DNA of 63,957 nt, counting the filler, from Phoronis australis (lineage: Eukaryota > Animalia > Phoronida), in assembly GCA_002633005.1 (NCBI GenBank). It is 12 parts of 12 records of this genome, joined end to end, with 100 filler letters (N's around TTAATTAATTAA, not from the genome) between each part and the next. Parts side by side here need not be neighbours in the genome. Positions count along the whole stretch, not along the records: positions 26,231 to 43,579 come from NMRA01001488.1; 11 more parts are not named here. One strand, written 5' to 3'. The notes under the pieces are model-generated. The model saw only the letters and a program-made list of their open reading frames with translations. It had not been told where the DNA came from and ran no database searches. Of this stretch, positions 3,244 through 55,323 are shown piece after piece (the stretch's first letter is position 1; each line of letters begins with the position of its first letter). Position numbers and translations under genes: made by a program.

Positions 3244-3923
3244 GCACAATGTCACTTTGAAGAAGATATTCAGACAAGCTTCTTAGTAACAGTTTCAAGA
3301 TTTCAAAATATTCAGTGTTCAGTGATCTAAAAGCCATGAACCACATTCTGCCTATTTGCTCTTCAATGTATGGCCAACATCACTACAAGTTCATGGACAT
3401 GGTCTCCAGCCATAACGACCTGTCAACTCTTCCTCAGCAGTTCATGGGAGTCGTCTGAAGCCGTAAGGAACTGTGCTCTCATCTCTAGCTGTTCATGGGC
3501 GTGGTCTCAAGCCATACGGACCTGTCAACTCTAGCCGCATCCATACATGTAGGAGCATTATCCCTTAGCAACTTCCACAAGAGCATCTGAAAATTGGTCC
3601 ACTTTATCAAATTACTGGTTCAAATTTTATCCATTAAAAACATGTTGCCTTTCATGCAAACACAATACATGTCGTGTAAGATTCAATGTTCAGTTGTTAG
3701 TAAAACTATATCATTCAATAACCTGGTACTTCTGAAGTCAAGAACATCCTAGGACACGGAATTTGCAATCAAAATCTAATTTATCATAATTTTCTGTGAT
3801 TTCATCAAAACAAGAGTGGTAGTAAAGACGGCACCAACCTGAGATCTTCAACAGAATGTCCTAAAGTATCCAGCTCACTGTACGAGCGCAGCACACACCG
3901 TCAGATACACGAACACACACAGG

Positions 3924-6900
3924 TCATAAACCCATCTCTTCCTTAACTTGTTTCAACGCCTGCTTGAATGTCAAGCGCGGTTTCTGTTTCCGCTTGATAT
4001 ACTGAAAAAGACCAATGTAAGCAAACACTTTCTTCCCAACTTTCTGTCTACAACAGAATGATGCAAACCACATTCTGGTATAAAAACTATAATTGCCCTT
4101 CTACAGTAATGTCATCGCGCCCTCATCATCCTGAATTGAAACTGTTTCCATCAACTCATCCAGAACACCCCCGACAGTAAGACTGATGAAACTAATCTGA
4201 AGGAACAACCAACAGGCAGTTCATTTCAAGCCTAGAAGACATTGACTGGGTAAGGAACAAGATCAGATGAATGTTAAACATGAAGCACTCCGAATCAAAA
4301 CTTAATTTTTTGACAAAAGGAGCAGATATATTACCCTATTATAACACAAAATAAAAAATACGAATATCAAACTCACCTTAAAAAACGTAATGCTGCTACA
4401 GATAAATTTTTCTGCAAGCTTAAGTTACCAAGAGAATACCTTGGATAGGGTACATGTAACTGTTTACCTTGGGGGAAAGGGGCCAGTTCAAATGAGATTT
4501 TTCTAGTGACTGAAAAGTCTGACCCACAACACTGGCCCCAAGACACAATCAGTTCCATTCCTTGCTCTTGTCAGATGTGCAACACACTACTGCTTGAATG
4601 CACTTGATATTTCATGCTTTAAAACTGCTGCAAACCCACTTTTTGACATGAAACTAACTTTTACACATTAAACAATAATTGCAGGCGATCTGGTATGTGC
4701 TGTAATAGATGCAGGCAGGCTGTTCAGGTGGACCTATAGCATCCATCACCTGGAGCCATTTTTACGCGTTACTAATATATAGTTAAAACCGAGCTTAGGA
4801 GGTAGACTTGATTCAAGGGTCTAGCAGTGTACCACATGGGGAGTTGAACCCATGATCTTGAGTAAAGGAAGCAAACATTTATCCCAGTAAGCCAGACTGT
4901 CTCTTCAAACTAACTTTTGCTTTTGACCTACTTGACACGAAGAATTGGTCTCAAATTGCAACTTAGAAAAACGGTTAAAAGGAATTGACATGTCATTCCT
5001 GCAGAATCAGCGCAGAAATGAACCCAAAAATTTGCGCGACCAGTTTTTTTTTTGAAAACTTACCTGTTTTGTATCTTCTAGAGTAGTGTACACATAATTT
5101 GGCTGAATAGACTCCATGGCTGACTGGTAGGAACTCTGTTGGATATCCATGAAGTTCCTCGTTAAGTTGAGTTGTTGTCTCAACATGTCGTTGAGGGCCA
5201 GAATGGCAGGACTGTATGCAGTCATGGCTGAAGCAATGTCAAGAAAGTATACCAAGACCTTGCAGCAGTCTCAGTGGATGTAGCTTGCACGCACCCAGCC
5301 CAAAAATGGGGGGGTGGGTCGAATTTTCGAGAATGCAGACTTACTAAAAAATAATTTGAACCTTTGTTCAGAGCTACAGCATGAATTTTGCATTCACCGA
5401 ATTTTGGTGGTTCCTGCCTTTTTAGCGGACTTTTGTCTCATTTTCTACTTTTTTAGACTTTTCGTTTCTCTGATGAGGATCTTTTTGCCCATTTCGCCAA
5501 CTTTAACAAGCCCCCCCTGGATGCGCACATGTGTAGGCATTAGCATTTCGCATGCAACACAGACAATCCATTGAAAAAGGAACAACGAAGGAAATAGGTT
5601 GATGCCACTACCTTTACTAAGCACTTCGCAATGTTACAACGATGTTGATTGCCATAAAATCTACAGGAAAAATTTTCCATTTCACAGAAAACAAAATAGC
5701 TCTTTTCTCATTTTTCAAAGTCCTCCAAGGTCGCTGCAAAAGCCCAAAATTTTGTCAAGAAAGATGGGACATAGCTATGACGATTGTAGACACGCTACTG
5801 CAAATGTGTCACTGTAACAAAATGCTAGAAATGAAGCATGCGCACACCCGGGGGGGGGGGGTTCGGAGGGCTCGAATGAGCCCCCCCATTTGACTAAATC
5901 GACAAAAAGGCCCACCTCAGAAAAGCAAAAAGTCTGCAGAAATGAGACATAAGTCCAGAGGAATTTGGTGCGAACACACTATTCATGGGACTGAATGTGG
6001 AACCTTGTTTTCTTTAGTCTCTACTTTTTCAACATTAGGTCCACATACTGCATAATTTGAGCCTCCCCTTATTTTAGGCTGGGTGCGCGCATGTGAAGTT
6101 TTGAAACATTTTTCATATTCAGGCTTAGTGTGCATTCATTGGTCATGTAAATGAACAGTTTGCAAATTAAAATCAGCCATTTTAGCCAAAACCAGACTGA
6201 TGTTTGATACAATGCCAACCAAAAGACCCGAATACAATACAACTTTGTCAATGAAAAAGTCACATATTATGCAGTCCACTCCTCCAAAACGTAGATGACT
6301 TGAAATTTCCTGGTCACGTTACTTATTAACACTGATGCACCATCCCACAACTAACACTCAGGGTCATACCTTCCAAAGCGTCAGCACTGACCACATGTGA
6401 AGCTATAGGGGAGGGGTCAACATAAGCTCCGCCCACTTGACCTCCCGCCACAGCGTGGCCACTGAAGGCAGAGTTCCATGCGTATGTCAAACCAGCTGGA
6501 TCTATGGTCTGCACCTCAACTGACTTGGAAGGAACATCTCCCTTGTTGTTGGAGTCGTGCTTGGGAGGTCTGGAAAATGTTTATTTGAATCCTTACTAAA
6601 CCAGCCCAATGATTAGGAGCAGCAGGTACCTGCACTCCAATGAAGCCTGCAGAGAACAAAACATGCACAAAACTTCTCATGTCTGAGCTGCTTCACTTAC
6701 ACAATGCTTCATTCCAACAAAAACCATGGGACCACCATCACTTACCTGACTTTTCAGTTTACTTATGGTAAAATCTAAACAACTTCGGACAAATATATTA
6801 ACCAAACCCGCTTTTTCTCATCTTTCAAGGTCTTCTTACACTACCGTGAGCGCTCAGATTTAAAATATTTGCGGATACATCATAGGAAAGTTAATACTGT

Positions 6901-9900
6901 ATTATTTATTTATTTATTTATTATAATGACATAAGGGTGCCAGTAAATACAATCTCAAGGACAATATTCATCACACCCCCAGCCTCAATGGGCTTACTCC
7001 GTCACCTAATAATAATTAAACCATTACATAACATATTGCACACGCTCAAATATGACCACTTCATACTAGTTTATAAACAAATACTTACTTATAAGCTGCA
7101 AAGCGTCTTGAATGAATTTCGCTAGACCTTTCAAGTTACTTTGGAATATTTGAGGTAGGGCAGAATCCCGTATAAAGTATGGTCGATTGTGAGTATATGT
7201 TTCACAGCAAATCAATAATTTTGTTCCATATGTCTCATATAAAAAAATAAGAAAATAAAATTGAGGCTGTTGGCCACATTGTGTTCTAAATCCGTCACAT
7301 TTTACAGTTGGATGACATCACTTTCATTTATGTTTGAGCTTGCCTTATTTCATTACTGATTTTTAGTTTTTTTTTAAAAAATGGCGGCTGCTGAGAGAAT
7401 ACCCATAATGCATGAGTCAGGTGTCACTCACCACAGCGGCCACTTGAGATGGTAGAGTGCACGACCAATAATAAAAATTAACTAAAAAATTCTGTAAATA
7501 CGATTAAATTTGAAAATATTTGGAGTTGTGTTGAATGAGCAATACTTGAGCTTAAGTTACCACTGAACCAGCTTGCAATAAAATCAGTTTAGCAGATGAA
7601 GTTTCTATTTATAATAAAATGAAACAGGAAAGTATCTATAATACTTACTTCACATGAGAGCTTGCACTGGTCCGTGACGACTGTGAGTAGCTGGAGGCAG
7701 ATCTACTCTTCACTGACGACTTACTGACTGTAGACGACCTGGACACAGTAGAGCTATCTAGACTGTATGACTTTGTCAACAGGCTGGCAGTGTTATGAAG
7801 GGTGGCAACAGTTTGACGCGTGTCTGTCCTCGTTTTACTAGAAGTCCTTGACTCCACCGTGGACGATGGAGCTGAACGAACACTGTCCTTCTCAGACAGG
7901 TCGCTGTCAAAGTCGTCACTGTAGTGACTTTTGATTGGACTGGCCGTTTTCACCTCCGACACCGAAGAGATCGTATTCACAGACTCCGGTCTAGAATGGT
8001 TGCTCGGCTCCGACTCGAAGTCACTGGCGTATCTGTCTTGAACAGGGCTTGGCATGCCTTCACTAACATCTGCTGATTGGCCAGCTTCACTGACCGCCTC
8101 AAGATCATCAAGAGTGGAAAGACCCAGCTTGTTGAATAGCCCTGCTGGCGACGGTTTCTGTCGGGGTGCACGTTGGACTGGTTCTTCAAGATCATCAAGA
8201 GTGGACAGCCCAAACTGACCTAAAGAACAGTGATTGAGTTCATTACCTAAATGACAAATACCGGGTACCACAACACAACTGTAATCAGACCTGATTATTA
8301 GGAATAATAAAGGTATTGATTAGGTAAAAGACAAGTTTTTTCTGCATCTTACTTTGTATTCAGTCCACTGTATTATGTATTCAGTCCACTGTATTTTGTA
8401 TTCAGTCCATTGTAGTTTGTATTCAGTCCATTGTAATTTGTATTCAGTCCATTGTATTTTGAATTCAGTCCATTGTATTTTGTATTCATTTTGTTTTTGT
8501 ATTCACTAAATCGTATTTTGTATTCACTGCACTATACTGATCCACATCATGCAATAATTGTCAACATTTCTAAAGACATGCAAAGTTTTTTAGGGGAAAA
8601 CAGTTAACAGGCTAGTGTATGCCTCAAAATGTTTATAACAAGAGCAATGCAGAGCGTTAACACGTGTCCACCATGTGCATTCTAAATGGTACAGGTATAG
8701 AAGGAGCATGTTACACAGCCCTCCAAACGATGACAAGTCTATGAATCGTATAGGCAGATACAGTGGCAGATGCCAAAATAAACGACTGTGAAACCAGAAT
8801 ACTAGAACTGCCACTAAAGGTGTAGCAGCAATCAACTCTGTCCAAAATTTCTGGGTAGCATAGTGTCCTCAATATGAATCCATCATGCCAGATTTTATTG
8901 AAACCCAACAGTATAAACAAAAAGAACAACCAACAGGTGGCACAGCAGTAGTCAGATGTGCTGTCACATTCATGTTACACTCCTACCAAAGCTCATGTAG
9001 ACCATGCATGGAATAAGGAGGAAGTGGATGCTAGACGCCCGGACAGATACGATGGCAAGATACAACAACATAATGTGTGTACATAAGAATGTCAGCGAAA
9101 ACAATCAAAAAGAAGAAAATCCCCACCTATGGAGGACAGCCCACCAAAACATGCACTCAGTCTGCCGACTGCTATACAGTCTACCAGTGGCACTACAGGT
9201 TAAAACATGCATATCTTTTGGGAACAAATTAGGAATGAAATATCAAGTTGTATAAATAGTTAGCACATACCAAGAACGTTGTCCTTTGTGGTCTCATCGT
9301 CAGTTTCAACAACAGATGGCACCTCTGAAGCAGAGTGCAAATCTTTTGGTAGGGGGCGCTCCTCACTGACAGCTGATTTTAGTGAAGTGAGACTTAACAA
9401 TTGGTTACCTGCAAGAAAAGCATATAAATGTAATTTCACTGAACAGCCTACCTGAAACTGTAAACATGGCCACATCTTAACACTATTGGTAGTACAGTGA
9501 GATATCCATTTTGTGTAAAAACCTTCAAGTGAAAAGTAAGGTAACATTTAAATGAAATAGTCATTAAGCCTGCAGATGGCAGGGAACCAGAAGGTATATA
9601 TTGATGATCGTTTTGCAGAAGACATGTTGTAGTAGGTGTTCATTCTTTCTGAAGGTGGCGCTGTTCTAAAATCTCGGTTTTGAGAAGAAATAGATAAGAA
9701 GAAAATTGCCAAATTCATTTTTGTTATTTATCACTTTGAAATAATAAAACAGAATTTGATTCCTCTGATTTTGAAAACGGAAAACTGGGATCTCTCGGCA
9801 AGGTGCCGGTTTCAAGGAAGCCTTGATCATATGAATGGGGGGGCGGGGGTAGAGTCAAACATGAGTGGGTTAGTTCTGTGTCCGGTTTACGTAAAGTACC

Positions 9901-31332: not shown

Positions 31333-31649
31333 GCTCGCACATTTTGAACATCAGTGACGTCGTTAACGTCTGTCGTGAGTAGGAATGATGTATATACATG
31401 TAAACTTATTCAAGCTGATAGAAAACTCTGATGGCCCTCTTATTTCCAGTGAGCGAGTTTTTCGGGAATAAAAATGCTAAAATCATAAAACGTCCAACAA
31501 AAAAACACAAGCATTGTATTCAAGCAGAGAAGTTTATTACACTTTTGAAGTTTGAATTGTCTTTTATAATACATAAATTTTGTCACTGGTTTATATAGAA
31601 TTTCCAACTGCACAGATGTTAAGCCGTGTCATGGTCGCTGTGTTACTAA

Positions 31650-34600
31650 CTAAAGTTCGCAAATGTAACGTGCTTCGTCGTTGCAGCTCTTTCTTTCGAT
31701 GCTCTCGTTACTGGGATTGAAAACCACACATGGGTCTGAAAAAGAGGTAACAGTCACGTGGTATGAATAACTTAGCAGAAGGCAGAAGTTTGAGTTGCGA
31801 ATACTTTCATCAAAACAGAGGCATCGTTGACATTGTTTATTACTTTGAAAGTAACTATGGTCATGTGAAGGTTGCTTCAAATAGACAGTTTGTGACTATT
31901 CAGAACCCTTAACACTATTGGATCCCCTGTAAGCTCGAGTTATGAGTAAGGCGGCTTGATACTGTAATATCTCCAAATGCTGGAGTGCACCAGTGTTGGC
32001 AGACTCATATATTATATAACATTAATCGATGTGAGGAAGTATAAAGGATTTGAACAGGACTTCTAAATGAGTAGAATTCAGGTGATGAGAGACAAGTTTG
32101 AGTGAATTAATTAGTTTCTGAGTTTTTTGTACAAGCTCCCGAACGTGAGGCGTGAACAACAGTTTTTCATCTAACAGTATACCAAGGTGTCTGTGCGACT
32201 GTTTCTTAGGGATGATTTCATCATTAAATTTAAGGTCATAAGACGGGTCAACAAAGAAGAGAGAATTATTATATTTGGAAAAGGTGAAGTCAACGCTCTT
32301 TTCTAGTTTAAAATTCATTCTCCACTGTTGTGACCAATAGCTGAGTTTATTCAAGTCGTGTTGTAGCTGCTAAGAACTCTCATCTGCGAAGGGGTAAAAA
32401 AAACGTGTCATCTGCATAAAGGTATGTGCTACATGACAGGTTATCAGGAAGGTCATTAATACAAACCAAGAAGAGAAGAGGGCCTAATACGCTACCCTGT
32501 GAGGCTCTTGCATTTACGAGCCCAGGAGTTGACAGAACACCGTCGACATGAACACTGTACGTACGATCAGAGAGATGTGAGGTGATCAAGTTTAAAAGAT
32601 TCCCAGTAATGCCATACGATCTAAGTTTGTGGAGTAGAAGGTCATGACGGACACAGTCAAAAGCAGAGGCTATATCTATAAAGATGAGCCTGACTGTCTC
32701 GCTCTTCTCATAATGTAAATGAATCTCATGTACTATTTCAACAAGTTGTGCCACGGTGCTGTTCCCAGACAAAAAACCAAATTGATGACAATAAATCAAG
32801 ATGTTTTGTTTGAGAAATGTAAGACTATTTTGAGCAATAATCTTTTCGAAGACTTCGGATAGGGTGTTGAGTAAAGTTATTGAGCTTTTTTGTTTATAGG
32901 GACCATAATTCCATGTTTCCAAGAAGACGGATACATACAAGTAGTACGGAGCTGAAGAACTTTCTTAAATAGATTGATTGGTTAAAGGCATGGTAATTTC
33001 GTTGGCAATCATTTTGATAATTCTGCTGGTGATAAAAGCTATGCCATCCTTCTTTTTGGGGTCAGTTTCAATGAGATACTTCCCGGCGTACATCTGTTTG
33101 GTTAGCCAGGATATCAGACAGTTAATTGAGATAACTTTCATTTAGAAAGGGAATTTACCTTCATCAGTTGGGGTAATGTGGCTTCAGTTCGCGAAAAAAA
33201 TGAGAAACAGGTCACACCTGTCACTGCTACTTGAGGCTAGGTTACCATTGTAGTGGATGATCATCTTTGGCTTAATTTACTAAAGTCTCTGTCAGGCGTG
33301 ACTGCTCCTTGTACCTGTTACTTTTTCTGAACGAGCTGTAAAGTCTGTTTCTTTTGCGGATTGGCCGTTTAATAGAATTTTTGAACCATGGTTGGCTGTT
33401 GTCTTTAATTACCTTTTAAGTAGATGTTGTTTTTTTAATTTTATACATAAAGAGTTCTAGTGAGGAGTGACACGGTGTCATGAATGTCGCCGGGGTCCAC
33501 TATAGAATCCCAATCAATGGGGATCATAATTCTGAGGTAGTTTAGGAGTGTCGACTTTATCATGCTCCCACATGGCTTGTGTGCTGTCTTGTTCTTTGGA
33601 CGGTTTGTTAAATGTTAGAGTGGTTTCAGCTGTGTGGTGATCAGAATTGCCAACAGGAGGTAGTACAGAGCGTGATTCAATGTTACTCAAATTGTTCTTA
33701 TGCAGAGATCTATACATGTCCCAAAATAAGAAGCCCTTGAATAAGAAAAGGCAGCGGGGAAAGGCCCATGGGCAATAAGGTAATACAAAACTACTTTTCA
33801 AATGTCTTGAAAAAATTTCCAGGATCTCCAAAGATAAAGAGCCCAACGTAAAAACTGCCATCAAGGGGCACTGCGGTAGTCAACACGAGTGCGCCTATAT
33901 ACGAATTAACGTAAGGTCCTATGCAGGGGACATTACATGGGCTTAGAGTACATGCAAAACTTAGGTGCATGCCATAACATACGAACCAATTGGGTAAAAA
34001 AGGCCAAGAAAAGACATTATTTCGGACTCAAACCCATGGGTCTAAAGGCTTGGCAATACCATATAGTTTGATGGTTACATTTTTTATGAACAATTATGTT
34101 AAGTGGAAATATAAATATTCAACAACAAAGCTGATAATTACAATTGACAGGATCAAATTTTGAAACGAAGACAAAAGGTAAATTCTTACCGACAACACTC
34201 CACACCTCAACGTCGGTCCATTCAACACTGAGTCCACAGTCAAGATTGCCGTTGAAGGTGGATCTCATGCACTGTCCGCTAGGCAGGAAGTGCATGTTGG
34301 TGTTGTCATACGATATACTACCAGAGAAGAACGACAGGTCATGACCCCCACCAAAAGTTGGACCTAAGTCTTCGGCATCGAACAGAGCCCAATGTGGACT
34401 CCCGCTGTACTTGGCTGACGTACACCCTTGTCTATGACACAGCCGAAACACGAATGAGTTGCTGTCCGTCTTGTAACTGTTGGTGCCTGTCCAGGAGACA
34501 GAGGCATATCCACCGAACGTGGTGCCACTCTTTAAATCTTTCCCAATAGTGATGGTTGGGCCTTTATTGTCGCATCTGCTGTGAAATACTGAAGGGTTCA

Positions 34601-35820
34601 TACCGTCACGTGATGCCCGGTACAGGAGCTTGAATTCTTTTCCTGGCAACCATTCTCTCAACAGTGCTACGCGGTCTGTAGTCAACAGGTTTGAATCAAT
34701 ATCCCCCACGCCTAAAATTCACAGGTATCATACAATCAAGGGGTGTCAAACATGTTTTCACGCTCTTCACTGCAATTTATATTCGTGGTTGGAACATTAA
34801 GTAATTAGGAATATTAGTTCACATCGCTCTTATAACAAGAACAGCCAACCAGGAGAAAGAGCAAAAGGTGAAACTTGAATGGTTTATTCATTAACAAAGA
34901 GAACATAACTGAAAGTGTCACTTAAAGTAAAAAATAACAGACGGTGAAAACGTACTAGTCCGAAGCCTTACAATAACACATTAATGTGTCCAGTACACTT
35001 AACGTATTTTGTAAGATCATCGAACTTTAAAATAAGCGTAACTGTTATGATGGTCTTATAACATACAAACTGGAACATTCCTTTGTCTTAAATTTTCCGT
35101 GAATGGCTTATAAATACCTTTGTACGCCTCTTTCCCAATAGTCCATACGGTGTCGTTATTCTTCAAAGATTCCTGAACAAGGAGAGATCTCAAACGATGA
35201 GATTCCATAAAAACTAAGTGAGAATTGTCTTCAAGGCATTTTTTTTTCGCAGTTTTCCAATCCACGGATACATTGCTCAATTTGAAACACGAATTTTGGA
35301 TATAACGAAATTGGCTTGGGCAATATAATTTACTTAAAACGCGTTCGAAGGAGGACGATGATATTTCACGTTGGTGTGTAACATCCTGGAGTAACTCGGA
35401 AGCATAAAATGAAAAATTCGTGCTTAAATCTGTCAGTTCGGTGTGAAAGCGATTCATGTTTTTTAAAACTGACGACTGAAAATCCCGGTTCTTAAATCTT
35501 TCTTCGCCGCTTTTATTTCGCATTTCTTCAAGTTCCGTTTGAAACGATGTCACGATTTTCAGAATTGTTGATTGAAAATCCCTATTCTTAAGATTCTCTT
35601 CATTACTATTTTTTCGCATTTCTTCAAACTTCGTTTGAAAGTGATTTATGGTTTTTAAAACAGTCGATTGAAAATCCCGGTTGTTTTTTTCTTCCTCCTT
35701 CAGTAAAGAGATGACGGATTCTTCGATAAGAGATCTCTTCACGGCAGTTGAAGCCTGCTGGAGAGACGCGACTTCATGACAAAGCAAAGCGATGATTACC
35801 AGGATATTAGCACCGAACAT
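31650..35820 (-). CDS. Secreted coiled-coil / C-type lectin-like protein with an inserted TLDc domain; exons 35118-35820, 34190-34711, 31650-31735; 436 aa
   Basis: 703+522+86 nt gives an open frame with GT-AG introns, both phase 1. Signal peptide MFGANILVIIALLCHEVAS; CTLD first half CPSQF..IQNSCF...W.TAKKKC...SHLV...VWTIG; TLDc exon; CTLD second half DPCVVF...KSCNDEARYICEL*. Confidence 0.85.
31760..33705 (-). mobile_element. CR1/L2-group LINE remnant (endonuclease end + reverse transcriptase) in intron 2
   Basis: VGNSDHH (APE C-terminus), HQFGF..GNST..QL, FIDIASAFDCVRH, QGSVLGPLLFL..INDL, LYADD, HRHLGILLDEKL.F; multiple stops and frameshifts. Confidence 0.9.
34190..34711 (-). CDS. TLDc domain exon (exon 2 of the gene above)
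   Basis: SNLL...LREWL...FKLLYRASRDGMNPSVFHSRCDNKGPTITI...FGGYASVSW...YKTDSNSFVFRL...GPTFGGGHDL...DVEVWSV are hallmark TLDc motifs. Confidence 0.92.
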
Positions 35821-49284: not shown

Positions 49285-50617
49285 CTGTTATACAGAATTT
49301 GTTAAATACACGACACTTTTCATTGTTCACAGTCTTTATTCCGTTACGTTCGTACTTTCGGCACAATACTCTACTCTAAACTGAACAAAGTAGATACATG
49401 TACAGTAACTGACCTAGCGACATAATTAAAAGACACACGATATTTCGAAACATACTTGTTTCATTCTCAAGTTAAGATAAAATAACGCAGTAATGCCACC
49501 ACAGAGAATAAGCAGACGACACGCACAGTGAGACACGGCGGGTGTGAAATACTGCAAAGAATGACTAATGAAGGGGGGTAACAGGAAAGTCACGCAAACA
49601 AGTGTAACGTACGTGCGGCACGACCCTGTTAGCTGCTCATTCAAAACAGGCTTCTCAAAAGCAATTAAAGGGGACTCTAATACTTTCAAACGCAGCACAT
49701 CCTGCTGTTAATGCAACCATGGGTCTCATTGGCGAACACATGATCGCGCAAGATGCTGCTTGGCTGCCAGTACAAGAACTTGGTGAGGAACCGAATGTCA
49801 TCATTGCTTTCAACAGGGAAGCTCGGGAAGGGCCTCCTGGAGTAGCCCAAGCATTGTGCCGTCAGCAATGGCGTGATCTTGGCGGTATTAATGCCATCAT
49901 TGTAGCAACTGATGGATCCTTCGATGGTGAAACTAATCGTGCGGGATGGGGTTATCAAATACGCTGTGCTAACAACGACATTGCGGAAGGTAGTGGCTGC
50001 CACCATGTATACACAAGCAGTACGCGGATGAAGTTTGAGGCTATACAACGTGCCCTAACCAAGTTGTCACTCTTAGACCTGGAGAATCACACCATTATCT
50101 TTGCCACCGATTCCATGGCTGTGTTGATGAAAGTTCAATCTGGAAACCTCCCAGCCAACTGGGGTGTCTTCCGATCACGCCAACCTCATCATGTAGTGAT
50201 CTGGTCTTTCGTACCTGGCCACGCCGGTGTCTTGATTAATGAGCGTGCAGATTACCTCGCTGGCTCATGCACCACCAACCAACCCCTCTACTTATATTCG
50301 GCTGACGTTAAGCTGCTGGCCCGCAAACGCAACCTCAGTCGATCAGACTGCCATCCCAACTGGCTGAGTTCAATGATGGCAGCCGCCTGCTCGAAGCCGG
50401 TATTATTTATGGCCATGCTGCGAAGAGTCACAAGAAGAGCCGTGCCCGCGTGCTGTCGAACCAAATACTTAAGGCAACGTCAGCCCTGGAGTTTGCGCCT
50501 TCTGCTGTCACGGGGATTGACTGGGGAGGGGATTAATGCACCAGCATAACCCCAATGATCCTGTCCGTGGCAGGCATTACAGGTATTATATTGCACATCT
50601 TGCTCCACGTAGCGAAT
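49285..50617 (+). mobile_element. Repeat family A, copy 3, interrupted by a retroelement at 49702-50592
   Basis: Sequence resumes at 50593 with GCACATCTTGCTCCACGTAGCGAAT, exactly as in copy 2. Confidence 0.9.
49702..50592 (+). mobile_element. 5'-truncated non-LTR retrotransposon encoding RNase H (ORF 49719-50549)
   Basis: 7-bp TSD GCACATC (49695-49701, 50593-50599); RNase H motifs ATDGS, AGWG, ATDSMAVL, VPGHAGVLINERADYLA; 3' end ATTATATT. Confidence 0.9.
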
Positions 50618-51822
50618 GGCAGTGACCAATTTTGATACAATGGAATACGTAGGTTTCCAAGGCGGTTTGAAGTGGTTACCAGAAAAGTTGATCTAGATCA
50701 ACTTTTGAGTGTCATTCTCTTGGCTCCCCTGACCACACCCACTAAAGCAAACTTGCCAGACGGCCACTTCCAAGTACGAGGATACCCATAGAGCACTGAG
50801 GCACCAAAGAAAATTGGTTACCTTTTCATGCCCAAAAAACTCTGGGATCCCGGTCTATCATGACCTTATGCGCTTCGTTAGTTTAATGTGCCAGTGATAG
50901 GCAGTGATGTAGTAGGTCTGTCTTTTGTCTGTGTACATGTTTATACGGTAAGCCTAATGAAATCTTGGAAGCATGAAAGAGCAGGTCCCGGTTTTGGAAT
51001 TAGTTAATTCTGTTAGAATGTGAACCAGTTTCCCAACGATATGTACAGTATTGTGATGGCATATTCTAATAAACCACATGATGAGGTCATGGTGAGTCTA
51101 TTCCTCCTCCCCCTGTCCCAAACCAGCATCTTTTCCAAGCCCCCTCCCCTCTCGAGTGATGACTACGTCAGTAAAGCCCCAAGAAATGGTTTCAAGACAT
51201 TTTATTTCGAGTTTTACATAGCCCAATAATTTCAGCACAGGTTCAAGATGAAAAAAATTATCAACAAACTACACTATATCAAATATGGGTGATGACAGAA
51301 GGATTGGTTCCCTCCCAACAGAAATGAGTTTCAAACAACCTTAGTATCTCACTGGGTTGTATGGATATGTTCTCTATTGTTTAGGACGTTTGCTTAATAA
51401 AGTGGGGGACCACACTTCATACAGCCCTAACTGCATTCCTCAACACCTGACTTCACAGGATGCACTAAGTCATACATGTAGATTACATCACTGTCCAATG
51501 ATACATCACAAACAAATATCTTGTAGAAAACTGTCGCAAAAGCACATCATGAATGTTTATCGTCTCCATTTTGAGTAGTTGATGTCACCTGAGATGATTG
51601 CCTTTTGCCTTGCTTCAGACCCTGGAAACAGACGAGCGTGATAAGAGAGCCTACTAAGCCNAAGTACGAGGATACCCATAGAGCACTGTGGCACCAAAGA
51701 AAATTGGTTACCTTTTCATGCCNNNNNNNNNNNNNNNNNNNNNNNNNNNNNNNNNNNNNNNNNNNNTTAATTAATTAANNNNNNNNNNNNNNNNNNNNNN
51801 NNNNNNNNNNNNNNNNNNNNNN

Positions 51823-52165
51823 GACCACTGAATAGAAGACTGTACATGTATGACCAATGAATAGAAGACAGTGTACATGTATGACCACCGAATAGACGAT
51901 AGTGTACATGTATGACCACTGAATAGAAGACGGTGTACATGTATGGCCACTGAATAGAAGACGGTGTACATGTATGACCACGGAATAGAAGACGGCGTAC
52001 ATGTATGACCACCGAATAGAAGACAGTGTACATGTATGACCACTGAATAGAAGACAGTGTACATGTATGACCACTGAATAGAAGATAGTGTACATGTATG
52101 ACCACTGAATAGAAGACAGTGTACATGTATGGCCACGGAATAGAAGATAGTGTACATGTATGGCC
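51823..52165. repeat. Minisatellite, 31-bp unit GACCACTGAATAGAAGACAGTGTACATGTAT, ~11 copies
   Basis: Head-to-tail array without spacers. Confidence 0.95.
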
Positions 52166-53079
52166 ATGAAATTTTTGTGTAAGGTTGCAACACTACACAG
52201 AGTATACAGGCTACATAGCATTATGTTTCTCAGACTTTGAAGTCCTACAACTCACCTGTCCTTCAACTTATACAATGAAGTCAGCTGAAGCAGCTCCATA
52301 GCCAGCATTTTGCAATACCACGATGCAACTGTTGTGGATTATCCAGGTGCATAATACAGAGAATGAAGATTATTGTGTTTTGATTCCATTGCACACAGAG
52401 TTTTATTTTAGTACGCTGAATATTACCAGATGGTTATAAACATTGCTTTCAAGATCTTACAAAACTAAGCTTTTTCAAATTCATACAAAACATGAAAAAT
52501 AAGTATCACTAGATTAAATATTAAAATTCTAAATTCATGCACAAAATAATTATTAACAATCGACTTTGCACACAAGAAGTGCACACTAAAATGCATAATA
52601 ATAATAAAAATTGACAACTCTTTATTTTTTCAGGATACCTGTGAGTAGCCACATCTCATATGAGACATTAGCCAAATAATACATGGCATTTGAACCTGTC
52701 AAAGGTCACTTTTAATAAGAGACGAGAAGTGCAGCATACTTTGACAACAATTGGTGTGAATTTAAAGTAGTCCTGCCAGTTAAACATTAATTACAACAAT
52801 CATTTCAAATAAAATGTCAAAATGAACAAGAAAATCACATGACAAAATGTCAACTGGTATCTTGTAATGACCACAAATATAAGAAGATTGCAACACAACT
52901 ACAATGTCAACACTAATATCGTTTAAGACAAACTAAAACATTCCTCTAAAGCTACTGATAAGTTAACACATGAGTAGCTGTAGTATTTGTAGAGTACACA
53001 GCCATTAATGGAGAACATTGCTCATTTAAAGGTCTGGAGCATCTGACGGGAAACCCAGCACTTCTCAGTCCTACCAAAC

Positions 53080-53480
53080 TTATAACTGTACAAATGTCCA
53101 GCAGTGCACCCAGCACCTCAGACCATTACAGTTATATCAAACTTTTAGTGTACAAATGTCNTATAACTGTACAAATGTCCAGCAGTGCACCCAGCACCTC
53201 AGACCATTACAGTTATATCAAACTTTTAGTGTACAAATGTCCGGCAGTACACCTAGCACCTCTCAGACCATTACAGCGAAACCACACTTATAACTACAAA
53301 TGTCCAGCAGTACACCAAGTACCTCTCATACCATTACAGTTATGTCACACTTATAACTGTACAAATGTCCGGCAGTACACCAAGTACCTCTCATACCATT
53401 ACAGTTATGTCACACTTATAACTGTACAAATGTCCGGCAGTACACCCAGCACCTCTAAGACCATTACAGTTATACCACAC
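53080..53480. repeat. Tandem repeat, ~65-bp unit, ~6 copies
   Basis: TTATAACTGTACAAATGTCC.GCAGTACACC...ACCATTACAGTTAT recurs (e.g. 53351 and 53416). Confidence 0.9.
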
Positions 53481-53917
53481 GAACTGCAAAATCCTAGTCT
53501 GACAGTAGACTCTTATCTAGCACGCACATAATTCACAGTACAAAATACTGAACAAAAAATTCTACGGGTACACAATTTTTGTGTCATAATGTCATATTAC
53601 AAAAATATACATACTAGTAGAATCCAATTACTACAGGAATTACATCCAAATTATGAATAGCACTCAAGTCAATTTGATCAGCTACAGCCGACTTCAGAGT
53701 CACCTAGTGGCATGTGTTGACACCCTTCCTTGATGACACAAACATGGAGGACCCAGCCAACTCTAGTCCAGTCATACACTAACAAATGTTCCCTAACTCA
53801 TTGCTCAAGTTCACCCCTAGCCGTGCATATTGTTCGATCACAACCTGCCTCCAAGCCTTACACTTTAACAACCAATATATGCCGACTATAGCAGTCATCA
53901 CAACAGCCACTCTGTAT

Positions 53918-54410
53918 TTACTGAGACATGCCGTACAGCTGATTTGTGACTAACACAGGGGTACGCACTTCATGCTCGGCTCCCCTGGGTTCAGCACTCT
54001 CGTATAAATCATTTCTGACCATCTCAACAGGTCCAGTAGTCACTGTATCCTCAACAGTCTCACCCTCAGCTGCTTCGTCGTAAGACGGCGGTAGACCAGG
54101 AGGGAAGTAAGTGGGAGGGGGAGTGTTGGGAACAGCATATTGGTTAACTTGAGGTACAGCATATTCACTGTCACATCTCGCCAGCTCTGCTGCCTCATTT
54201 TTCTTATTGGCACTGGTGTCGCGGCTCAACAGAGAACAGTTACTGTAAGTGTTGTGAGTGGGTGAGGCAAGCGGTGCTGCTTCAGCTCCGCCCACTTCTG
54301 TGTACTCTGTCTCGTTGATATCACTGTATACATTGACATCCATCCTCTGGTCTATGTACTGATTATTGTGAAATGAGACCGTCTGCTCCTCACAGGAGTG
54401 CTTTTTTCTC
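53918..54410 (-). CDS. Terminal exon encoding the cytoplasmic tail of a probable single-pass receptor
   Basis: Acceptor TTTTTAG, then a basic stop-transfer segment RRKK and ~163 aa of disordered sequence with VYSDI, EYTEV, SEYAVP, NQYAVP, PPTY, PPSY, NDLY and NQLY. Confidence 0.7.
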
Positions 54411-55323
54411 CTAAAAACACAAATGCATGACTGAGAGAACACTGTCAAAGGTCAAAGCAACGTGCTGCCACCTATGGTTATTTTTGTTACTATGACTGCT
54501 TGAATAACCAGATTTTATCTAGCAAAAGAGTTTCACCACAATTTTGTAAAGATAACAGTTTGTAACTCGGTGGAAGTCCTTTTCAAAGGCTTTAACTATG
54601 CAAATTGGAACTAAATTTTTTATGTATTTGCTCTGTCAAATGGAGTTTAACTGTTGTTTCTGTGATATGATATTCTACTCAAATACGATCTTGGAGGTGG
54701 CAGTGAATGGCGCTTCAAACAATGTATTTGCCCAGCTGATAACTAAAATGTTCCTAACATGTTGAATTTGTGTAACGTAATAAATTTTATGTCCTGACGT
54801 GTTAAACTTTGGTCCTTCCATGACAAACTATAGGTCCTGGCGAGATAAATTTTGGTTTTGAGCATATTTTTGGTCCTGCAGAAAATAAATTCTTGAAAAG
54901 AAAATTTGTATCCCTGAATATTTTCCGCTTCGGCTTTCCATATATAATGTCCCTTCCAGCCATTGGCAGAAGAATAATTCTTCAACCTGGCGGAACAACA
55001 CATCCTCAGAATACAGTTTCTCATGTACTAACAGCATTTACTCCCATCGACATAAAATAATTAGAAATGACAAACCGTTATTTCCACATTTTTGCCCTGT
55101 AATTAATTCTGTGGAATTTTCTCTCCTAAAATTAGACAGCGATGCAAAGACACCAAGCAACTCTGTTTTGACAGGTTGACAGACAGGGTATTGAGGAACC
55201 ATCTTGATCAAGAACATCAACATNNNNNNNNNNNNNNNNNNNNNNNNNNNNNNNNNNNNNNNNNNNNTTAATTAATTAANNNNNNNNNNNNNNNNNNNNN
55301 NNNNNNNNNNNNNNNNNNNNNNN

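Follow-up and report, generated by a model that had tools for sequence, protein, structure and literature searches.

The stretch of DNA analysed here (the window, 63,957 nucleotides) consists of 12 joined parts of the Phoronis australis genome assembly GCA_002633005.1. In the part taken from NMRA01001488.1, the minus strand carries three exons which splice into one open frame of 436 amino acids, in which a complete TLDc domain is found inside a C-type lectin-like domain, or CTLD, between its two halves. We are highly confident of this nested architecture. The original prediction had joined three separately listed open reading frames by GT-AG splicing in phases 1 and 1 into a protein of this length, and both the splice sites and the translation bear this out. 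The two introns lie exactly at the borders of the TLDc domain, each in phase 1, and exon 2 is symmetric because its 522 nucleotides are a multiple of 3. Exons 1 and 3 joined without exon 2 are likewise in frame (263 residues). Only a few codons 5' of the start codon in exon 1 there is a stop in the same frame. Symmetric open exons of 45-300 nucleotides were sought in both introns, and no candidate that would restore a normal long loop was found in either. No further TLDc exon or paralogue was found elsewhere in the window by tblastn or blastn. The features of the gene are collected in Table 1.

Table 1. Features of the nested TLDc/CTLD gene, in window coordinates.
Feature	Position	Strand	Remarks
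Exon 1 (coding)	35118..35820	-	703 nt; signal-like start, helical repeats, CTLD N-terminal half; ends in phase 1
Predicted signal peptide, about residues 1-18	35767..35820	-	Hydrophobic core; putative cleavage site
Three 32-residue amphipathic repeats, predicted helical stalk	35386..35682	-	NRDFQS at residues 53, 85 and 117
CTLD N-terminal half (beta0, beta1, alpha1, alpha2, beta2)	35119..35340	-	C167, C178, C195; W-T-I-G; PDB CTLD matches
Intron 1	34712..35117	-	406 nt; GT-AG; phase 1
Exon 2, complete TLDc domain, 174 codons	34190..34711	-	522 nt; symmetric, phase 1-1
Intron 2	31736..34189	-	2454 nt; GT-AG; phase 1; contains decayed retrotransposon
Exon 3, CTLD beta3-beta5 and stop	31650..31735	-	86 nt; C411, C426, C434; no WND
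Poly(A) signal hexamer	31533..31538	-	About 110 nt beyond the stop; no second one within the 650 nt that were scanned

The Pfam scan finds RVT_1 in intron 2 (E 3.1e-17, 32383-32964), within a frameshifted reverse transcriptase remnant of the long interspersed element (LINE) type on the minus strand (32025-32964), which is covered by RNA reads of related copies on both strands. This LINE-type remnant, the spliceosomal introns and the animal-type CTLD matches given below point to an invertebrate animal as the probable host.

Exon 2 matches the Pfam family TLD (PF07534) with an E value of 3.6e-25 and 89.3 bits, against a gathering threshold of 24.5, over positions 4-169 of the 170 in the profile. 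Its AlphaFold model, built from a 73-row alignment, has a predicted local distance difference test score (pLDDT) of 89. When compared with 48,161 chains, the model matches six TLDc structures with Z scores of 13.9-17.6, the next match having a Z of only 4.2. These include mEAK-7 (Z 17.6, root-mean-square deviation 2.5, 158 residues aligned) and 4ACJ (Z 17.3, deviation 2.6, 153 aligned). The conserved fold residues and core glycines of TLDc domains are retained, and there are five extra cysteines, at residues 281, 326, 331, 382 and 393. The 174-residue TLDc domain originally proposed for this exon is thus confirmed by the Pfam match and by the fold. Foldseek matches to fibrinogen-like domains (E 0.5-1, TM about 0.2) and matches to lectins in the VIA structure search (Z under 4) were discarded as noise. 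By sequence the domain is of the GPTFGGGHD type, as found in BTB-TLDc, IFI44-like and protist proteins (35-46% identity), and it has no starred place with these groups in either of the two trees described below. The layout of IFI44-like proteins, with an N-terminal TLDc followed by a P-loop domain, is seen in the fetched protein P0036 and is absent here, and in neither tree does the window TLDc belong to the starred clade of IFI44.

The surrounding CTLD has all six long-form cysteines. Residues 167, 178 and 195 in exon 1 and 411, 426 and 434 in exon 3 fit the three disulfides of a long-form CTLD, and they are divided three and three on either side of the TLDc domain, just as first described. 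From the sequence pattern, the pairing would be C167-C178, C195-C434 and C411-C426. A PDB search with the exon-1 half gave 119 matches at E values up to 10, and all 60 of those listed are CTLD proteins; the best are the animal CTLDs of LY75 (E 2.7e-05) and KLRF1 (3.7e-04), over residues 161-234. The same half is close to Lectin_C clusters in the Atlas (score 0.88, a lead only). HMMER, which recovers TLD in exon 2, gives no Pfam match for the N-terminal half alone, and for a 30-residue stretch containing exon 3 its sole match is to Lectin_C, positions 81-106 of 107, at an E value of 0.0065, which is under the curated cut-off. Together with its three cysteines, this match agrees with the assignment of exon 3 to the remaining CTLD strands. 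The 'WIG' motif reported at the end of exon 1 is present in the form W-T-I-G. It is a degenerate version of the beta2 WIGL motif, of which the conserved glycine is, in our reading, out of register, because the sequence reads W-T-I-G; related transcripts have W-A-V and W-A-G-G at this place (read by hand).

The exon-1 half and the exon-3 stretch were also co-folded as two chains, which gave a score of 0.47 against 0.21 for the best control, with at least 90% of contacts shared between runs and a partner pLDDT of at least 65. In calibration, 51 of 78 solved complexes and 2 of 108 mismatches came up to this mark (on eukaryotes, 39 of 65 and 2 of 126). Scores of 0.60 or less came from only five of the 78 solved complexes, yet from all four of the mismatches that passed (of 180). 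The model lends weak support to the two halves refolding as one domain, and it may reflect memory of solved CTLDs or a resemblance to them. Stronger arguments for a joint CTLD than the fold score are the pattern of cysteines and the preservation of both junctions in related genes.

The Ca2+/sugar site of CTLDs is described as being defined by the motifs EPN or QPD and WND, and the long loop as a flexible, variable and semi-independent part of the fold that evolves independently (PMC7618208). The patterns EP[NSD], QP[DN] and W[NS]D are absent from the spliced protein and from the three gene-strand frames of both introns, in agreement with the loss originally reported. The protein thus lacks the EPN/QPD and WND of Ca2+ site II that characterise the Ca2+-dependent C-type lectins (carbohydrate recognition domains, CRD).

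The N-terminus has a hydrophobic core at residues 4-14 (KD11 2.88), and no other segment exceeds KD19 0.84. This predicted signal, the sole such segment, supports the proposed secretion, and judging from the sequence the 436-residue protein is likely to be secreted. In the three repeats that follow, the strongest hydropathy period among those tested is 3.6; repeats 1 and 2 are identical at 17 of 29 positions, and at the DNA level the repeats are 75-82% alike. They likely form a helical stalk. There is no collagen Gly-X-Y in the exon 1 translation and no collagen family in the Pfam scan. The term 'collectin-like', used at first for this protein, is thus loosely true, the stalk being predicted helical repeats and not collagen. 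The spliced protein has five N-glycosylation sequons. Joints at 35386-35694 ('goes back 88', 'skips 211' and 'skips 108') indicate that related genes appear to vary in the number of stalk repeats.

Four stranded RNA runs with the same species label (X1-X4) were analysed, about 18-19% of each raw run being read. The reads over the gene come nearly all from related genes, mostly 80-95% alike. They document the splicing and expression of these relatives, the transcription of this copy itself being putative. At junction 2, the related transcripts run from 31732 to 34198 with 14 intervening letters, compared with 11 predicted, which is one additional codon in frame (4 reads in X1 and 2 in X2); loose ends past exon 2 (220 reads in X1, 147 in X2) continue into an exon-3-like sequence, D-G-N-A-C-T-V-F-N-P by hand translation. 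At junction 1, 34695 is joined to 35143 with 44 letters between, compared with 41 predicted, in one X4 contig (1191 nucleotides, depth 305) and in 1+1 reads. Both junctions of the original prediction are thus found in frame in related transcripts; this copy has almost no reads at least 99% alike. Exon depth is nearly all on the strand of the gene, and intron 1 has no depth across 34742-35101. At 35174-35245, in the N-terminal half of the CTLD, three samples from a single study, of which similar amounts were read, had depths of 295.6, 225.3 and 1.0; because this is a difference of more than 200-fold, the related gene family appears to be strongly tissue- or condition-dependent.

The scarcity of closely matching reads would fit a silent or decaying paralogue, or a copy which mainly makes the 263-residue loop-less CTLD from exons 1 and 3, the nested form then coming only from relatives. 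The retrotransposon remnant in intron 2, the open frame across exons 1 and 3 and the degenerate WIGL motif are in keeping with this. However, all three exons are open and their splice sites intact, and no exon 1-to-3 joint was found at 90% likeness, which counts for little given that exon-1 coverage near the donor is nil. The runs may also come from a diverged population, in that most reads across the whole stretch are less than 95% alike. We regard a silent, decaying or exon-skipping copy as quite unlikely.

It is worth adding that in run X3, at 34190-34230, about 20 reads carry a similar TLDc exon, after which a stop comes within three further codons' length, directly behind the third (hand translation). 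They come from a related TLDc gene without a CTLD end, as would be expected if the TLDc exon is a mobile module.

The known partner of TLDc domains deserves separate consideration. Those of NCOA7, OXR1 and mEAK-7 are described as binding the V-ATPase (PMC8608904, PMC9263379). The contact is made with V1, its soluble part, by way of subunits A, B and E, which a secreted protein would not normally meet. PMC9263379 names seven mEAK-7 residues as V-ATPase contacts, and the window TLDc keeps only two of the seven, as read by hand from an alignment that is weak in part. Another possibility is that the protein is an extracellular protector against oxidative stress, its CTLD and stalk merely carrying an OXR1/NCOA7-like TLDc. 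Its conserved fold residues and the five cysteines of exon 2 would suit such a role, and TLDc domains are tied to oxidation resistance by a mechanism described as open (PMC8329711, PMC9263379). The phenotype, however, is tied to V-ATPase binding inside cells (PMC8608904, PMC9263379), and the extra cysteines could as easily form structural disulfides; we give this role very little chance.

The long-form CTLDs (PF00059; LY75/DEC-205, KLRF1, Mincle, DC-SIGN) have in common with the window protein the six-cysteine pattern, a sequence match to its N-terminal half and a weak match of its C-terminal strands to Lectin_C 81-106. The group II CTLDs are also described as having a helical stalk before the domain (PMC7618208). 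Unlike these, the window protein has a 174-residue TLDc domain in place of the long loop, none of the motifs EPN, QPD and WND, the variant W-T-I-G, and no transmembrane segment. It resembles the TLDc proteins (mEAK-7, OXR1/2, NCOA7, TBC1D24, and yeast Oxr1p and Rtc5p) in fold and core glycines, at about 20% identity, and differs in that its TLDc lies inside another domain of a likely secreted protein. With the collectins (MBL, SP-A, SP-D) it shares a signal peptide (here predicted), a stalk and a C-terminal CTLD, and the Atlas look-alikes of its N-terminal half include SFTPA and SP-D-like clusters (0.84-0.87, leads only); it is without their collagen region and their Ca2+/sugar site.

A secreted TLDc domain is in itself not new, since extracellular TLDc domains occur in corals and in bacterial PEP-CTERM proteins. 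One bacterial family of surface proteins is the PEP-CTERM-anchored TLD of NCBIfam (NF038124), against which exon 2 scores 62.6 bits with a cut-off of 100. Coral proteins with signal-like N-termini carry a C-terminal TLDc domain (P0083, EGF-TLDc; P0104, PAN-like-TLDc), and the FN3-TLDc proteins P0137 and P0153 have theirs in a likely exported protein. None of these has its TLDc inside a CTLD. The picture of TLDc as an intracellular module, with which the original prediction started, is therefore incomplete; the bacterial nested proteins described next are a further extracellular precedent. Among titles and abstract openings, mostly outside subscription journals, no publication on a TLDc nested in a CTLD was found, and a term search of the main text of a 2026 TLDc review (PMC13570293) gave no occurrence of 'extracellular', 'secreted' or 'bacteria'.

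The nested order itself is found in the giant surface proteins P0134 and P0146 of uncultured Myxococcota-like bacteria, which run from a CTLD N-terminal half through a TLDc domain to CTLD strands beta3-beta5. In the TLDc protein set (550 matches in 371 fetched proteins), a motif filter flagged five matches, of which these two proved truly nested on inspection. The nested arrangement also occurs in 7 of 170 TLDc matches (157 loci), L001-L007, all of them among the 78 prokaryote-genome loci, and in none of the 79 metagenome loci, which were read in plus-strand frames only, blind to introns. No other animal case was found in the lists of matches, each the best 120-150 of hundreds to thousands, and both nested proteins found are of the giant bacterial type; other animal cases may exist. 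Both domains are thus known, and so is their nested order from bacterial giant proteins. What is new is that the version seen here is animal-type and exon-encoded, that its loop is lost completely, and that RNA gives evidence for an expressed family. For exon 1, a search of 1828 candidates with 411-2000 residues gave no close homologue (near lengths not searched); exon 2 has domain-level relatives only, mostly 30-47% identical, and no metagenome-contig locus with a near-full-length match above 40%.

The bacterial proteins agree with the window protein in domain order and differ in most other respects. Those seen whole have 5400-6200 residues, whereas the window TLDc is one exon of a 436-residue protein. 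They keep a loop, W..G..Y.NW..EP-x, with EP-x placed 29 residues past the motif W in all seven loci, and the window protein loses this loop, 25-30 residues more than they do. Between the motif W and FHxxC there are 76-81 residues in seven of seven bacterial loci and 51 here; between the end of TLDc and beta3 there are 14-20 in the bacterial loci and 7 here. The bacterial C-terminal halves retain W-x-D and are without the beta3 cysteine, whereas the window protein shows the reverse, its inner disulfide pair being kept. A profile of the bacterial C-terminal halves scores that of the window protein at 0.8, with shuffles reaching 4.3. A profile of six bacterial N-terminal halves scores its counterpart at 12.8, the best shuffle reaching 3.3, and this tells no more than that the two are both CTLDs; BLASTP of the window half against a bacterial one found nothing. 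An AlphaFold model of the bacterial nested region has the TLDc folded and both CTLD halves below a pLDDT of 50, which is uninformative since only 10 sequences were available.

Two trees of TLDc domains were built. The first has 65 rows chosen from the 550 matches as named taxa and the 22 best matches; for the second, of 54 rows, 18 were dropped (including two long P0250 rows) and the seven nested bacterial domains added. In both, the bacterial domains are in a starred clade that does not include the window TLDc, which sits on a long branch with no starred home. Forcing the window and bacterial TLDc domains together is rejected by the approximately unbiased (AU) test with 65 rows (p 0.014) and left standing with 54 rows (p 0.143); because the two tests disagree, an independent origin is likely only.

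The common order would also follow from horizontal transfer of the nested unit out of a myxobacterium-like giant surface protein, with introns gained and the loop partly lost afterwards. The domain-in-domain order is indeed the same in P0134, P0146 and L001-L007, and the 54-row test tolerates such a clade. Set against this are the grouping in the two trees, the 65-row test, the insert borders, which differ at both ends, the bacterial C-terminal halves with their different landmarks and a profile no better than shuffles, and the exact placing of two phase-1 introns at the TLDc borders. We consider transfer very unlikely. Independent origin by exon shuffling is the preferred reading and appears likely, mainly from the insert borders and intron positions and not from the tree. 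Both transfer and a silent copy are compatible with the other readings of what the protein does.

Some further observations were made on these proteins. In P0146, at about 3800-4120, there is a second CTLD-like end (W-N-D...F-V-C) ahead of the WIG motif, so that a further domain may be nested in the same CTLD, and in P0250, at about 4800-5180, a CTLD-like end follows the TLDc with a different N-side. L001 and L007 are titled 'uncultured Enterobacteriaceae', yet one starred clade unites their TLDc domains with those of Myxococcota loci, and these titles may be mistaken. The cnidarian TLDc domains of P0083 and P0104 are nearer to those of the bacterial giant proteins than the window TLDc is.

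We propose that in this likely secreted protein the whole TLDc domain takes the place of the sugar-binding loop of the CTLD. The lower lobe of the CTLD would be a disulfide-locked pedestal, its halves refolding through the three cysteine pairs given above, and the TLDc would be a Ca2+-independent binding head at the position of the ligand loop. That related genes are spliced in the same way in RNA makes it likely that the TLDc serves as an extracellular binding head, and we consider this model of pedestal and head probable. The stalk repeats would probably oligomerise, giving multivalent display, and the head would bind an extracellular target (a microbial surface, matrix or host protein) and not the V-ATPase. 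As to origin, a CTLD gene probably took up a phase 1-1 TLDc exon by shuffling at one of its phase-1 sites and lost the long loop, an event separate from the origin of the nested bacterial proteins. That those proteins tolerate a TLDc domain in the same loop counts in favour of the proposal. Its use in recognition of the immune type is more tentative, a little short of an even chance, and the explanation as a whole, with its recognition role, stands at about even. Several results weigh against it: reads at least 99% alike to this copy number 6 of 1994, 2 of 1369 and 0 of 66, and contigs 0 of 14; the AU test with 54 rows allows the window TLDc to share a clade with the bacterial ones; and one of the two V-ATPase contacts kept, at the position of mEAK-7 G276, is by our own reading the equivalent of NCOA7 G815, a surface residue described as needed for V-ATPase binding (PMC8608904).

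The expression data admit another use of the same architecture. The protein might belong to the structure or matrix made by one secretory tissue, such as mucus, cuticle, shell, egg coat or adhesive, with the TLDc and stalk serving for assembly and not for recognition. Non-sugar-binding CTLDs occur in invertebrate matrices, and the large differences of related transcripts between samples, the apparently variable number of stalk repeats among relatives and the five sequons would be in line with such a role. However, the expression pattern fits an inducible or haemocyte gene equally well, and no low-complexity or cross-linking segments were seen. A matrix role seems unlikely.

The significance of the proposed recognition protein lies partly in the biochemistry of TLDc, the solved complexes in the fold search being with the cytosolic V-ATPase. 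A small, soluble and likely secreted display of TLDc at the sugar position of a lectin offers a handle on a ligand that is independent of the V-ATPase. The gene also shows cleanly how an entire domain, encoded by one exon, can stand in place of the CTLD binding loop and, if the bacterial cases arose separately, how one loop has convergently come to carry one and the same passenger. More speculatively, and with the odds against it, an animal lineage and myxobacteria-like bacteria may independently have put TLDc into the ligand-binding loop of a CTLD. This TLDc subtype would then be a general extracellular ligand-binding module that replaces the sugar site, the expressed family a class of secreted recognition proteins, new and of invertebrates, and V-ATPase binding only one use of the fold.

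Elsewhere in the window, long open frames on the minus strand at 7648-8319 and 53921-54451, Ser-rich and Pro/Tyr-rich respectively, are probably exons of other genes, with no credible Pfam match. The region 51770-53528 is tandem-repeat-like, with repetitive pseudo-open reading frames on both strands. An open frame of 313 codons on the plus strand at 49608-50546 has an RNase H domain (E 5.5e-10) and is probably another retroelement remnant.

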